Assembly (NCBI GenBank): GCA_965220745.1
Contig: CBDCQT010000007.1
Location: 256,001 to 320,000, forward strand
Source: Alphaproteobacteria bacterium
Lineage (GTDB): Bacteria > Pseudomonadota > Alphaproteobacteria > UBA828
DNA: 64,000 bases
Direction: 5' to 3'
The translations under genes and the position numbers were made by a program. Shown here piece by piece: positions 1 through 8,697 of the stretch. Below the pieces are notes generated by a model. It saw only the letters and a program-made list of their open reading frames with translations. It searched no databases and was not told the DNA's origin. Within the stretch, counting starts at the first letter, position 1, and each line of letters opens with the position of its first letter.

Positions 1-1186
1 CGGCGGTGGTCTCTTCCGGTAGCCGCCCACGCTGGTCGCGCATCTTGCTGGCGAGCTGCCAGCAGCGCGTGATCACCTCGTTGATCCGCCCCATGCCCTG
101 GCTGTCGGAGCCGAACATCGAGACCGAGCCGATATCGTGCAGCACGTCCTCGGCGGCGATGGTGCCGTGGCGCACCCGGCTCTCGGCGAAGGCCACGTCC
201 TCCGGCAGGTCGAAGCGCAGCAGGTGGCAAGCCATGGTCATGTCGAGCTGCTCGTCGAAGACGTTGACCGTGTAGGGGTTGGTCGGATTGGTCGAGGACG
301 GCAGGCAGTGCGGCTCGCCGTTGCAGCGGATGATGTCGGGTGCATGGCCGCCGCCGGAGCCTTCCGTGTGATACATGTGGATGGTGCGGCCTGCGATCGC
401 CGCCATCGTGTCCTCGTAGAAGCCCGATTCGTTCAGCGTGTCGGTGTGGATCTGGACAGGGAAGTCATGCTCGGCCGAGGCGCGCAGGCAGGCGTCGATG
501 GTGGCCGGCATGGCGCCGTAGTCCTCGTGGATCTTGACGCCGATGATGGCGCCGTCGAGGTGCTCTGCGACGGTCGCGGGATCGTGGGACGAGCCGCGGC
601 CGAAGAAGCCGAAATTGATCGGCCACGCCTCCGACGCCTCATGCATGCGGTAGGTGTTCCAGGGACCACCGCAGTCGATGGCGAAGAGCGGCCCCATGGT
701 GCCGCCGATCATGGTGGTGAGGCCGCTGGCCAGCGCGTGGTTGCACTGCTCCGCCGACATCCAGTGGACGTGCACGTCGATGCCGCCTGGCGTCACGATG
801 AGGCCGCCGGCCGGGTAGTAGGTGGTGTTGGGGCCGCAGACGAGATTGGGGTCCACGCCGTCTTGCGTGTTGGGATTGCCAGCCTTGCCGACGCCCGCGA
901 TCTTGCCGTCCTTGATGCCAATGTCGGCCTTCACCAGGCCGAGCACGGGATCGATGACGGTGGCGTTCTCCACCAGCATGTCGATGGCGCCGTCGGCGGC
1001 TGAGGTGTGGGCGTCGTAGGACATGCCGTCCCGCATCACCCGGCCAGCGCCGGTCCAGCATTCGTCGCCATAAGAGGTGTGGTCGTGCTCGATCTCGCCG
1101 ATCAGCGAGGTATCGCCGAGCCTGATCTTGTCGCCCTTGGTCGGCCCGTAGTAGCGGGCATAGGTCTCGCGCGCGATCTTCACCAT
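1..1186 (-). CDS. ureC: Urease alpha subunit (divergent); C-terminus runs off the window start
   Basis: Manual translation from ATG 1186: [26 protein letters not shown]...GGIDVHVH...VKIHEDYG...[11 protein letters not shown]...[13 protein letters not shown]...PSSTNPT...GSDSQGMGR. All six Ni-ligand positions are present. Absent from the ORF track because there is no stop in the window. Confidence 0.93.
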
Positions 1187-1190
1187 CTGC

Positions 1191-1886
1191 CTACGCTCCC
1201 CGGAATCCGCCCGCCTTGGCGCGGGCGATCGCCTGCTCCTTGACCGCAGGCGCGTCGATCATGCCCTCGGTGAGGGAATTGAAGCCGCTGACCCGGCCGC
1301 GGCCGCCGAACTCCACCAGCGCCACCTCCTTCTGTTGGCCCGGCTCGAAGCGGACGGCGGTGCCGGACGGGATGTCGAGACGCATGCCGAAAGTCGCCTG
1401 CCGGTCGAATTCGAGCGCCCGGTTGACTTCGAAGAAGTGGAAGTGGCTGCCGATCTGCACCGGGCGATCGCCGGTGTTGGTGACGGTGACCGAGCCGGTT
1501 CTCCGGCCTGCGTTCAGCTCGATTTCCTCGTCCGGCGTGATGATCTCGCCGGCACGAGGGGCGGGCGCGGTCTCGGCCTTACCTGGGCGGATCGGCTGAT
1601 GCACCGTGATGAGCTTGGTGCCGTCAGGGAACATCGCCTCGACGTGGATCACCGGAACCAGCTCGGGCACGCCGGGCAAGACGTCGTCCGACGTGAGGAT
1701 CTCCGCGCCGTAGCCCATGAGATCCTTGAGCGAGCGGCCCTCGCGGGCGCACATCAGGAGCTCGTCGCAGATATAGGCGAGGGCCTCAGGGTGACTCAGC
1801 TTGATGCCGCGGCGCCTGTGCTCGCGCGCGAGCTGGGCGGCCGTGAAGATGGTGAGCCGCTCCTTCTCCGTCGGATTGAGGTTCAT
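1191..1886 (-). CDS. ureAB: Fused urease gamma/beta subunit
   Basis: [11 protein letters not shown]...[14 protein letters not shown] (gamma) continuous with [21 protein letters not shown]...[14 protein letters not shown] (beta); GGAG upstream of ATG 1886. Confidence 0.93.
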
Positions 1887-2011
1887 CGGCCGTCGTCTCC
1901 CTTTTGCGTCCCGTGACCAGAGTAGTCGCCGGACCGCGCGGAAAACAGCCGAATTTGCCGCCACTCCGGGCTTGCATAGACTCGGGCGTTCGCCAGGAGG
2001 GAGCCCGGTCA

Positions 2012-3025
2012 ATGATCGCCAACGCCAGCCGCCAGATCGTCCTCGCCGCCCGCCCGGAAGGGGCGCCGAAGGAGACAGATTTCCGCCTCGTCGAGGCGCC
2101 GGTGCCCGAGCCGGCAGAGGGCGAGCTGCTGGTTCGGACGATCTGGCTCTCCCTCGACCCCTACATGCGGCTCAGGATGGGCACGGACCTGCGCTACTAC
2201 CCGCCGATTCCGCTCGGCGACGCGATCGTGGGTGGTGCGGTCAGCCGCGTGGTGGAGAGCCGTCATCAGGGCTTCGCGCCCGGCGACATCATCGACGACT
2301 ACACGGGCTGGCAGGACTACGCCATCGCGCAAGGTGCCAGCGCGCGCAAGGTAGACCCGGCGCTGGGGCCGCTCTCCACCGCCATCGGCATCCTCGGCAT
2401 GCCGGGGCTCACCGCCTATCTCGGGCTGGTCAAGGTCGGCCGCCCCGCGCCGGGCGATACGGTCGTGATCTCGGCGGCGGCGGGCGCGGTCGGCGCGGTC
2501 GCGGGCCAGGTGGCGAAGATCGCTGGCTGCCGGGTGGTCGGCATCGCGGGCGGGGCGGAGAAGCTGCGTTACCTCACACAAGAGCTCGGGTTCGACGAGG
2601 CCATCGACCGCCACACGGACGACCTGCCGGGCGCCCTTGCCCAAGCCTGCCCGGACGGCATCGACGTCTACTTCGAGAACGTCGGCGGGCCCATCGGCGA
2701 TGCGATCTATCCCCTGCTCGCCCACGGCGCGCGCGTGGTGATCTGCGGCGGCATCTCCCACTACAACGCGACCGAGCCACCCAGGGTCGCGAGCCACCTC
2801 GCGCCCATCCTCTTCACCGAGACTGAGGTGAAGGGCTTCAACATCTTCTCCTACGGCGCACAGTACGAGCACGCGCGCAAGCGCCTCGCCCGTTGGCTCG
2901 CCGACGGCCGCCTCGCCTTCAAGGAGGACATCGTGGAGGGGCTGGAAAACGCGCCGCTCGCGTTTCAGCGCCTCTTCGACGGGCGCAACTTCGGCAAGCT
3001 GCTGGTCAGAGTCTCGGAGGAATAA
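2012..3025 (+). CDS. NADP-dependent oxidoreductase, MDR/prostaglandin reductase-like (CurA/YncB family)
   Basis: [44 protein letters not shown]; GGAGG RBS before ATG 2012. Confidence 0.9.
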
Positions 3026-7802: not shown

Positions 7803-8483
7803 TCAGGACTCGCCGATCTCGCCCAGAATTTCGTCGGCCGGGATGACACGCGCGTAGCCGCGCCGCAGCGTTTTCAGCTCCGCCTCGTGCAGCTCCCGGT
7901 TGTCGGTCGCGGTCACGTCACTGCCGAAGATGACCTTGTAGTCGCGAAAGAAGGCGTCCCGGGCGGTCGCGCCGCAGCAGTAATTGGTCATGCAGCCCGT
8001 GATGATCACCGTGTCCACGTCGCAGCCGCGCAAGTAAGTGTGCAGGTCCGTATCGAAGAAGGCGCTGTAGCGGTGCTTCTGGATGACCTTCTCGCCCGGC
8101 TCCGGCGCGATCTCGTGATAGGTGGGCACGTCTTCGGCGCCGATTCGGAGCGCGCCGTCCTTGATCGGCCGGTTGAGCGGCACATCCCACATCAATCCCT
8201 TGTCCCGGCCCGTGGCGTCGTGGGCGTGCTCGGTGAAGATGACGGGGATGCCGAGGGTGCGGCATCGCTCGATCAGCGCCTTGACGCGGGGCAGGATCCG
8301 CAGGTTTTCCGGGGTCCACATGCGCGCGCCCTCGGCGACGAATCCTTCCTGGAGGTCGATCACCAGCAGCGCCGTCTTGCCCGCATCGATGGGAAAGTCG
8401 GGGTTGGACGCTTCGTATTGATCGGCTGCGCGCTCGAGGATTTCCGCCTCGCCCGGAAATGCCCGATCGGCCCTGTCCGCCAT
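7803..8483 (-). CDS. Isochorismatase-family cysteine hydrolase
   Basis: TALLVIDLQ, KHRYSAF, GCMTNYCC (D-K-C triad); GGAGG RBS. Confidence 0.9.
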   Translation of the reverse strand: MADRADRAFPGEAEILERAADQYEASNPDFPIDAGKTALLVIDLQEGFVAEGARMWTPENLRILPRVKALIERCRTLGIPVIFTEHAHDATGRDKGLMWDVPLNRPIKDGALRIGAEDVPTYHEIAPEPGEKVIQKHRYSAFFDTDLHTYLRGCDVDTVIITGCMTNYCCGATARDAFFRDYKVIFGSDVTATDNRELHEAELKTLRRGYARVIPADEILGEIGES

Positions 8484-8697
8484 GCCTCCCTCCTCGCCGT
8501 TCTTCCTGAAGTCCGCCGGCTTTCGGGCCGGCTCGCGTGCGGGAGAGCGGAGAATACCCCAGATCGCCGGCGCCGCCGACGCTCCGACAGGCCGCGGCGC
8601 TCGCACCCACAAGCGCCGATACGGCGATCATGTTATGCCCAACCGATGTACGATGGCGGGGCGCCGCAGGCGCGCGACTTTGCCAAGGGTGACGGAC

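Follow-up and report, generated by a model that had tools for sequence, protein, structure and literature searches.

The window analysed here is a 64,000-nucleotide stretch of the genome of a marine alphaproteobacterium (G000:C7:256001-320000). It begins inside a minus-strand gene for a urease alpha subunit (ureC), which is preceded by a gene for a fused gamma/beta subunit (ureAB). This gene had been singled out from its letters alone as a urease paralogue with intact nickel ligands and a remodelled substrate pocket that might serve a different substrate. The open reading frame and all motifs quoted in that original prediction are present in the translation. The features of the locus are as follows.

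Window 2..1186, minus strand: ureC (urease alpha subunit), codons 1-395 of 569, from the open reading frame and the full-length translation; truncated by the window start.
G000:C7:255480-257186, minus strand: the complete ureC, 569 amino acids.
G000:C7:255480-256000: the 3' part of ureC, codons 396-569, outside the window and before its start.
Window 1191..1886, minus strand: ureAB, fused urease gamma/beta subunit, 231 amino acids, from the translation and a match to NF009671.
Window 1887..2011: intergenic region of 125 bp between ureAB (minus strand) and a divergent NADPH oxidoreductase gene, from gene positions.

The stop of ureAB lies 4 nt ahead of the ureC start, and its product matches NF009671 ("bifunctional urease subunit gamma/beta") at 340 bits (cut-off 243), with the whole model covered from residue 1. 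Ten bases downstream from ureC, outside the window, a further gene encodes a UreD protein of 285 residues (Pfam PF01774, E 3.5e-36), for which the profile search gave no NCBIfam match.

The UreC protein scores 730.8 bits against TIGR01792 (cut-off 680) and 783.3 bits against NF009686 (cut-off 354), and it does not reach the cut-offs set for the more narrowly defined equivalogs NF009685, NF009834, and NF010591. Ureases in the PDB match it at E 1e-178 to 1e-185 with HMMER (jack bean 3.9e-185, Helicobacter pylori 3.3e-183), and its identity to solved ureases is 48%-52%. An AlphaFold2 model built from a 58-sequence alignment has a mean predicted local distance difference test score (pLDDT) of 90.4 and a predicted template-modelling score of 0.94. 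When compared by Foldseek with the ureases of Klebsiella aerogenes, H. pylori, jack bean, and Sporosarcina pasteurii, this model gives template-modelling (TM) scores of 0.95-0.96 at a root-mean-square deviation of 1.7 A, and the next fold class (allantoinase/hydantoinase) reaches only 0.46. The weakest blocks of the model are residues 41-60 (pLDDT 71-74), 271-280 (the glycine-rich loop, lowest at pLDDT 60), 361-370, and 461-470. Profile scores and model agree in predicting a urease alpha subunit of the TIGR01792/NF009686 type (EC 3.5.1.5), with a TIM-barrel amidohydrolase domain, a beta domain, and a helix-turn-helix flap.

The active site was read from HMMER alignments with the jack bean (3la4) and H. 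pylori (8hc1) enzymes and from 19 sequences of the canonical urease clade. Residues H139, H141, K218, H247, H273, and D361 correspond to the jack bean Ni ligands H407, H409, K490, H519, H545, and D633, and jack bean H492, D494, G550, C592, H593, R609, and M637 are also identical in the window protein. All six ligands are intact, as had been predicted, and they are kept in 39/39 sequences of the protein's own clade (a count that includes L089, the same gene as L023 with an earlier start). The same 39/39 sequences keep H220, D222, G278, H321, R337, R339, and M365, and 38/39 keep C320 and A169. One single-member cluster of the clade (P0010) has Val in place of Glu221.

Contacts with the maturation machinery also appear to be preserved. 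PMC10121161 describes three switch regions of H. pylori UreB that bind UreD (GAGGGHAP and FADSRIR among the motifs) and an acidic residue in the nickel tunnel. The window protein has the counterparts GSGGGHAP and FAESRVR, the latter with both Arg residues, and an acidic residue at the tunnel position. By alignment, the catalytic His/Asp/Arg triad, the flap Cys-His, and the UreD-contact switch residues are all present.

The listed differences from ordinary ureases, including a loop that is 4 residues shorter, are real when judged against jack bean, H. pylori, and the 19 canonical-clade sequences. Canonical strings in the first two enzymes read FGGGK, GGGTGPA.GT.ATT.TP, HEDWG, EH(L/M)DMLMVCHHL, and SDSQAMGR. 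In jack bean numbering, the window protein carries V314W, F315T, G317A, K319R, W495Y, A549S, H585Q, L589T, V591A, H594L, and A636G, together with a deletion of 3+1 residues around positions 437-445, in which the loop Ala (A440) is still aligned with an Ala.

The accompanying claim that these segments line the urea pocket was only partly borne out. According to PMC7433671, the K. aerogenes pocket is enclosed by A167, H219, E220, D221, G277, C319, H320, R336, A363, and M364; urea is bound through the side chain of the His and through backbone carbonyls contributed by the Gly and the two Ala, and an Asp-His-Arg lock positions the flap. Only two of the cited changes touch this list. The first concerns the loop Ala, which is retained, and the second Ala363, which serves as a backbone contact and for which the window protein (Gly364), like every noncanonical clade sampled, has Gly. 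The HEDW Trp and the second His of CHH are only neighbors of pocket residues, and FGGGK is off the list. To speak of a remodelled substrate pocket was therefore an overstatement, because nine of the ten enclosing residues and the six Ni ligands are unchanged, and the short loop and SDSQG are shared with another large clade (below). As far as the alignments can tell, the altered sites are second-shell and flap neighbors and not first-shell residues.

A word-indexed search was used to place the protein among its relatives. Among the best 120 matches listed, one stands at 99% identity and 18 clusters at 75%-85%, after which identity falls to 69% or less. A scan of species genomes gave 77 loci. 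The pool comprised 231 sequences, 225 of them distinct, and 19 low-quality or distant representatives were left without a clade. Tree rows were prefiltered on length and two motifs, which removed 23/231, and were dereplicated at 90%. The resulting 74-row tree comes from an IQ-TREE "quick" search, with support from the Shimodaira-Hasegawa-like approximate likelihood ratio test (SH-aLRT) only and no bootstraps.

In this tree, a canonical clade (10 rows) is separate from a short-loop superclade (56 rows, SH-aLRT 95). The window protein belongs to a 9-row clade (SH-aLRT 99) nested in a 35-row clade (SH-aLRT 99), whose sister is a 19-row clade of fused gamma/beta ureases called C3-type here, which includes a second urease of the same genome; together these two form a 54-row clade (SH-aLRT 99). 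For convenience, we use "HEDx" for the subclade formed by the 35 rows, in which the loop has 17 residues and HED is followed by an amino acid other than Trp. A third urease of the genome gives its name to the C12-type. The distinguishing positions are distributed as follows.

Loop length: 17 residues in 39/39 of the own clade and in 35/36 of the rest of the 35-row clade; 18 in 100/100 C3-type and 3/3 C12-type; 21 in 18/19 canonical.
Residue 364: Gly in 39/39 of the own clade, 36/36 of the rest of the 35-row clade, 100/100 C3-type, and 3/3 C12-type; Ala in 19/19 canonical.
Residue 223: Tyr in 39/39 of the own clade; Y20/F13/L3 in the rest of the 35-row clade; Trp in 100/100 C3-type, 3/3 C12-type, and 19/19 canonical.
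Residue 322: Leu in 38/39 of the own clade; R10/H8/A4/Q3/N3 and others in the rest of the 35-row clade; His in 100/100 C3-type; Asn in 3/3 C12-type; His in 18/19 canonical.

With its 17-residue loop, Y223, L322, and G364, the window protein would not be grouped with the canonical (K. aerogenes-type) ureases. The replacements of HEDW by HEDY, CHH by CHL, and GGGK by GAGR are clade-specific and fixed, each in 38-39/39 sequences; nearby, W44 is found in 37/39, A47 in 39/39, and R49 in 38/39. The short loop and SDSQG also occur in 100/100 C3-type ureases, which are otherwise ordinary-looking. Several residues originally cited as distinctive (Q313, A319, S277, and W142) occupy positions that vary within the clade: 313 is G26/Q11/A1/H1, 319 is S22/A16/Y1, 277 is G22/S12/A5, and 142 is F27/W11/Y1.

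A separate deep clade of eight urease-alpha-like proteins (P0127-P0144; 37%-50% identity) was also observed. These proteins have all metal ligands and carry HED(L/V/H/Y/T/M)(G/A); their loops span 10-17 residues, their flaps are very different, and they branch outside the canonical and short-loop ureases.

We consider it reasonably probable (roughly 0.68) that the window gene encodes a Ni-dependent urea amidohydrolase, that is, a urease isozyme of an uncharacterized subfamily, in a functional ureAB-ureC-ureD unit. The subfamily is marked by the gamma/beta fusion, by an active-site loop that lacks 4 residues of the canonical one, by HEDY where canonical ureases have HEDW, and by a variant mobile flap with CHL and not CHH. 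The enzyme would bind two Ni through carbamylated Lys218, H139, H141, H247, H273, and D361, and would hydrolyze urea by the usual bridging-hydroxide mechanism. Its maturation would depend on scattered helpers, namely its own ureD, the ureF beside the C3 urease, and the ureE and ureG of the C12 cluster. Positions 223 and 322 adjoin Asp222 and His321 of the Asp-His-Arg lock that positions the flap. The change from W to Y beside Asp222 and from H to L beside the catalytic His321 would tune flap gating, pH dependence, or affinity and not the reaction itself. On this view, different conditions would be served by three urease isozymes in one organism.

In an alternative reading, the preferred substrate of this nickel-dependent amidohydrolase of the urease family would be an N-substituted urea, a ureido acid, a small amide, or a carbamate, and the three enzymes of the genome would divide substrates among them. 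C3-type and canonical representatives share the same conserved residue in 237 columns. The own clade has a fixed change in 10 of these (47, 49, 127, 199, 209, 223, 237, 322, 375, and 465), two of which flank pocket residues. This pattern amounts to modest remodelling, and two flanking sites among 10 are a weak enrichment given a rough chance expectation of ~0.8. The replacement of Ala by Gly removes a methyl group from the Ni(2) side, where, according to PMC7433671, the Ala C-beta of the S. pasteurii enzyme contacts a water. However, each reported urea-contact side chain or backbone position is either kept or changed just as in the ordinary-looking C3-type clade, and several of the supposed pocket residues (313, 319, and 277) vary freely.

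A broader version of this idea views the whole HEDY/F/L clade as a radiation of nickel amidohydrolases in which the lid, once released from the canonical CHH motif, was retuned toward compounds other than free urea. Such compounds could include N-methylurea, N-carbamoyl amino acids, and other ureido compounds from the breakdown of host creatine/creatinine, pyrimidines, or hydantoins. We regard this broader version as quite unlikely. HEDx enzymes of the wider clade are the only urease alpha, with a complete accessory set, in two genomes (G056 and G058). In G056, a complete 3.9-Mb chromosome, ureD-G-F-E stand beside the HEDx urease, and a gene of the arginase family is close by. The simplest view of a lone enzyme that has all its helpers is that it is a urease.

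The term paralogue was well chosen, since the genome contains three strong Urease_alpha matches of three different types. The genome, which the original prediction proposed to check for a second, canonical urease, has two further ureases, a C3-type enzyme with canonical pocket and flap motifs but an 18-residue loop, and a C12-type enzyme. The three clusters are arranged as follows.

C7 cluster (the window's own locus): ureAB-ureC-ureD.
C3 cluster, G000:C3:134664-139106 (L009 6665-11107), plus strand: ureF-ureAB-ureC, then a cytosine-deaminase-like amidohydrolase.
C12 cluster, minus strand: ureA-ureB-ureC-ureE-ureF-ureG-ureD, with ureC at G000:C12:393999-395696 (L008 7997-9703); the sole complete cluster in the genome.

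Against TIGR01792, the C7 protein has the lowest score of the three paralogues (730.8, compared with 747.7 and 810.9). The C12 alpha subunit sits on a long branch (1.06). Its sequence is odd in several places (DIHPHF, HEDWS, IHADTLNE, CHNL, QGRAR, and SDSQGVGR), and it has GGGNAPD, with Asn for the His of the UreD-contact glycine loop; these motifs recur in paralogues of two relatives. Upstream of the C3 locus lie genes for a D-aminoacylase-like amidohydrolase, a major facilitator superfamily transporter, and an aminotransferase. On its flanks, the C12 cluster has HyuA/HyuB genes of a caprolactamase/hydantoinase-like kind and a gene for a D-hydantoinase.

The set of three is retained well beyond this genome. 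The C7-type gene is found, in the company of the other two types, in 17/20 other genomes of the genus, and the three genomes without it are 92%, 67%, and 62% complete. Five relatives with complete chromosomes have exactly the same three alpha types, and 2/4 genomes from other genera of the family carry the C7-type. At ~80% identity, G002 and G003 have all three types, G004 and G005 have two, and G001 (a 2.4-Mb metagenome-assembled genome) has only the C7-type. Hyphomicrobium sp. GJ21 and Methylophaga sulfidovorans DSM 11578 have no urease alpha other than a C3-type enzyme.

This long retention, together with the diversified flap of the sister lineages, is why a shifted substrate is kept as a minority reading, and the hydrolase genes of ureide or hydantoin type that adjoin the C3 and C12 loci point in the same direction. 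So do six UrtA-like periplasmic binding proteins in the genome (185-433 bits, e.g., C12:708297-709373, C3:44023-45147, and C7:46780-47826), none of which exceeds the urea-specific cut-off; the UrtA profile search of the genome gave 31 matches in all (best 432.8 against a cut-off of 492.75) and nothing firm on urea uptake. The best UrtA-like protein adjoins two weak amidohydrolase matches at C12:706-708 kb.

Nevertheless, the claim of a different substrate found no positive support. Among five relatives, the gene has no conserved adjoining transporter, regulator, or pathway gene; a Pfam search of 36 flanking open reading frames at L020, L021, and L023 revealed no conserved transporter or pathway gene, and one of 43 open reading frames at seven loci of the wider HEDx clade revealed no consistent neighbor. 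At individual loci, L020 and L023 have a downstream gene for ornithine cyclodeaminase, and L021 and L023 have an isochorismatase-family gene ~5 kb upstream. Four of the seven wider-clade loci encode family-5 binding proteins, immediately behind ureC at L034 and L035 and at a distance of several kb upstream at L030 and L031; L030 also has an arginase-family gene, and L044 a UrtA-like protein. Rfam, run at its gathering threshold on the window's locus (L007), the loci of five relatives, and both other urease loci, revealed no riboswitch or RNA leader. With these results and the solitary HEDx ureases described above, we judge a shift in the substrate of the window enzyme to be unlikely, and a urease isozyme remains the preferred interpretation.

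The three-urease arrangement with its split helpers is the more notable feature of the genome. UreE and UreG are encoded only at C12, UreD at C7 and C12, and UreF at C3 (PF01730, E 4.9e-33) and C12, which leaves the C3 locus without ureD, ureE, and ureG. The UreF at C3 is closer to that of HEDx-type clusters (47%-53%) than to that of C3-type clusters (36%-45%), and the two fused-type ureases thus appear to share one split helper set. Relatives at 79%-84% identity (10 loci) have a fuller cluster, ureE-ureF-ureAB-ureC-ureD-ureG. In 8/10 of these loci ureG follows ureD, and the other two contigs stop at ureD; ureF precedes ureAB in 8/9 loci that reach upstream, the exception being L025. At L020, UreE_N, UreF, UreD, and cobW/UreG were confirmed by Pfam. 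The check for adjacent ureDEFG genes succeeded for ureD, which directly follows ureC in 9/9 genus loci at 69%-93% identity, but failed for ureE, ureF, and ureG.

Such losses could mean that the enzyme uses another metal or another maturation route, as does the iron urease UreA2B2 of Helicobacter mustelae, and that the full Ni-insertion machinery is no longer needed in the genus. The three missing genes are gone from the neighborhood in 9/9 genus loci while relatives at ~80% identity have them, this genome lacks the orphan second ureG of five relatives, and the H. mustelae enzyme (3qga) is as close structurally as are the Ni enzymes. This explanation is nonetheless improbable, as ureD is kept behind ureC in every genus locus, the UreD-contact switch residues are retained, UreF, UreE, and UreG are encoded elsewhere in the genome, and the ligand set is without any difference. 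The orphan ureG (G006:C1:676703-677293 and equivalents in G007-G010; L102 4998-5642) scores 235-243 bits, above the TIGR00101 cut-off, and adjoins no urease gene. In G006, it lies between an acyl-CoA dehydrogenase-like gene and a molybdenum hydroxylase gene, and synteny with the present genome breaks right beside it.

A cluster with few helpers in cis, whose alpha subunit has the lowest TIGR01792 score of its three paralogues, might also be a noncatalytic or decaying copy left after duplication or transfer. This reading is disfavored, and we give it hardly any credence. The ureC frame is intact in all 9 genus loci, and comparison with nine genus relatives (93%-100% identity, no indels) gave ratios of nonsynonymous to synonymous substitution rates of 0.023-0.095 for ureC and 0.10-0.26 for ureAB. 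The ureC gene is under strong purifying selection. Its catalytic residues are kept throughout the 39 clade sequences, and near-identical sequence is found in RNA libraries. Metatranscriptome contigs from such libraries (labelled sponge or marine metagenome) cover ureC at 92%-99% identity, the longest being 1,427 nt. Nothing can be read from the parts that these contigs leave uncovered, such as ureD bins at depth 0, or from the short "joints".

Several observations weigh against the interpretation of the window gene as a functional urease isozyme. No ureE, ureF, or ureG lies within 8 kb of the C7-type gene in 9/9 genus loci, so that the action of helpers in trans on the C7 urease is assumed, and the genome has a single ureG compared with two in five close relatives. 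The retention of three urease types together across the genus and beyond is more easily explained if the types differ in function. Canonical ureases hardly vary in the flap motif (CHH in 18/19), whereas it has diversified in sister lineages, where its Cys is replaced by Ala/Val/Ile in 34/36 sequences and the next residue is R, H, A, Q, or N, among others. Because model confidence is low at the glycine-rich loop and at residues 41-60, the model says little about those changed segments. The RNA-library contigs can neither show strand nor exclude DNA carry-over. Finally, the literature searched yielded no measured activity for any clade member and no paper on the clade or on the role of the HEDW Trp.

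Some features of the surroundings complete the description of the locus. The 125-bp region at window 1887..2011 is, from gene positions only, the presumed promoter region of the ureAB-ureC-ureD unit, and a GGGAG ribosome-binding site precedes the ATG. A consensus scan of L007 9700-14300 gave 0 sigma-70-like sites and 0 terminators, and reading the 125-bp region by eye for a sigma-54 site gave no clean GG-N10-GC match. The sole matches in the Rfam run were one tRNA and "5_ureB_sRNA", antisense inside ureC at L007 12736-12980 (plus strand; window 736-980) and at the same place in five relatives (46.7-61.7 bits). This match probably reflects the conserved coding sequence underlying that H. pylori ureB model, and not a small RNA or other regulator. 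Beyond ureD, the same strand encodes an OmpR-type response regulator and then a histidine kinase. On the divergent side of ureAB lie the NADPH oxidoreductase gene (window 2012-3025, plus strand), a Nudix gene, and a sugar-type ATP-binding cassette transporter. Farther away, at window 7803-8612 (minus strand), an isochorismatase-family hydrolase is weakly like BiuH (biuret amidohydrolase) and RutB (65 and 63 bits, far below cut-offs).

As it stands, the window gene is a well-conserved, correctly annotatable urease. The finding matters in part because ureC is a widely used marker for urea use in marine and host-associated microbes, and here one genome has three urease types, two of them from biochemically untested subfamilies, with nickel-helper genes split among the loci. 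Should they be isozymes, their comparison offers a natural way to learn which residues of the second shell and the flap govern urease affinity and pH behavior. If their substrates differ, inferences based on ureC would need revision. Were the lids of the HEDY/F/L clade indeed retuned, each "urease" of the genus would take a different ureide, and many marine metagenome "ureC" reads would not report urea use.

Among known systems, the canonical Ni ureases (K. aerogenes UreABC, S. pasteurii, H. pylori UreAB, and jack bean) share with the window enzyme the fold, the six Ni ligands, the substrate-binding His, the Asp-His-Arg flap lock, the flap Cys, and the UreD-contact switch loops, and UreD/E/F/G helpers are found in the clusters of its relatives. 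They differ in having a 21-residue loop instead of 17, SDSQA instead of SDSQG, HEDW instead of HEDY, CHH instead of CHL, and (K/V)-F-G-G-G-K instead of W-T-G-A-G-R. The gamma/beta fusion resembles that of H. pylori, and no close kinship is shown by it. The C3-type ureases (NF009671 plus NF009686) are nearer, at 62%-66% identity, and like the window enzyme they have a fused ureAB, a shortened loop, and SDSQGMGR. They differ in HEDWG (100/100), CHH (99-100/100), GGGK (100/100), and an 18-residue loop, and their gene order is ureE-ureF-ureAB-ureC-ureG-ureD, whereas ureD comes before ureG in the window's clade. C3-type members were found in Aminobacter, Labrys, Hyphomicrobium, Methylophaga, Mesorhizobium, and the Pseudomonas syringae group, in addition to the present genome. 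In the literature searched, no biochemical study of the C3-type or of the window's clade was found.

H. mustelae encodes UreA2B2 as a second urease, for which no accessory genes of its own are known. This nickel-independent iron urease (3qga) matches the UreC model as well as the Ni enzymes do. Unlike UreA2B2, the window enzyme has a conserved adjacent ureD and its relatives carry the whole helper set; iron is without evidence here. An organizational counterpart is Brucella, for which PMC2868824 and PMC2492869 describe two urease clusters (ure1 and ure2), of which only one gives measurable urease activity while the other is transcribed and linked to transport. In the present genome, there are three clusters rather than two, the window's cluster has no transporter genes, and two fused-type ureases have their helpers split between them. 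Common to both cases is that several urease clusters are kept in one alphaproteobacterial genome.

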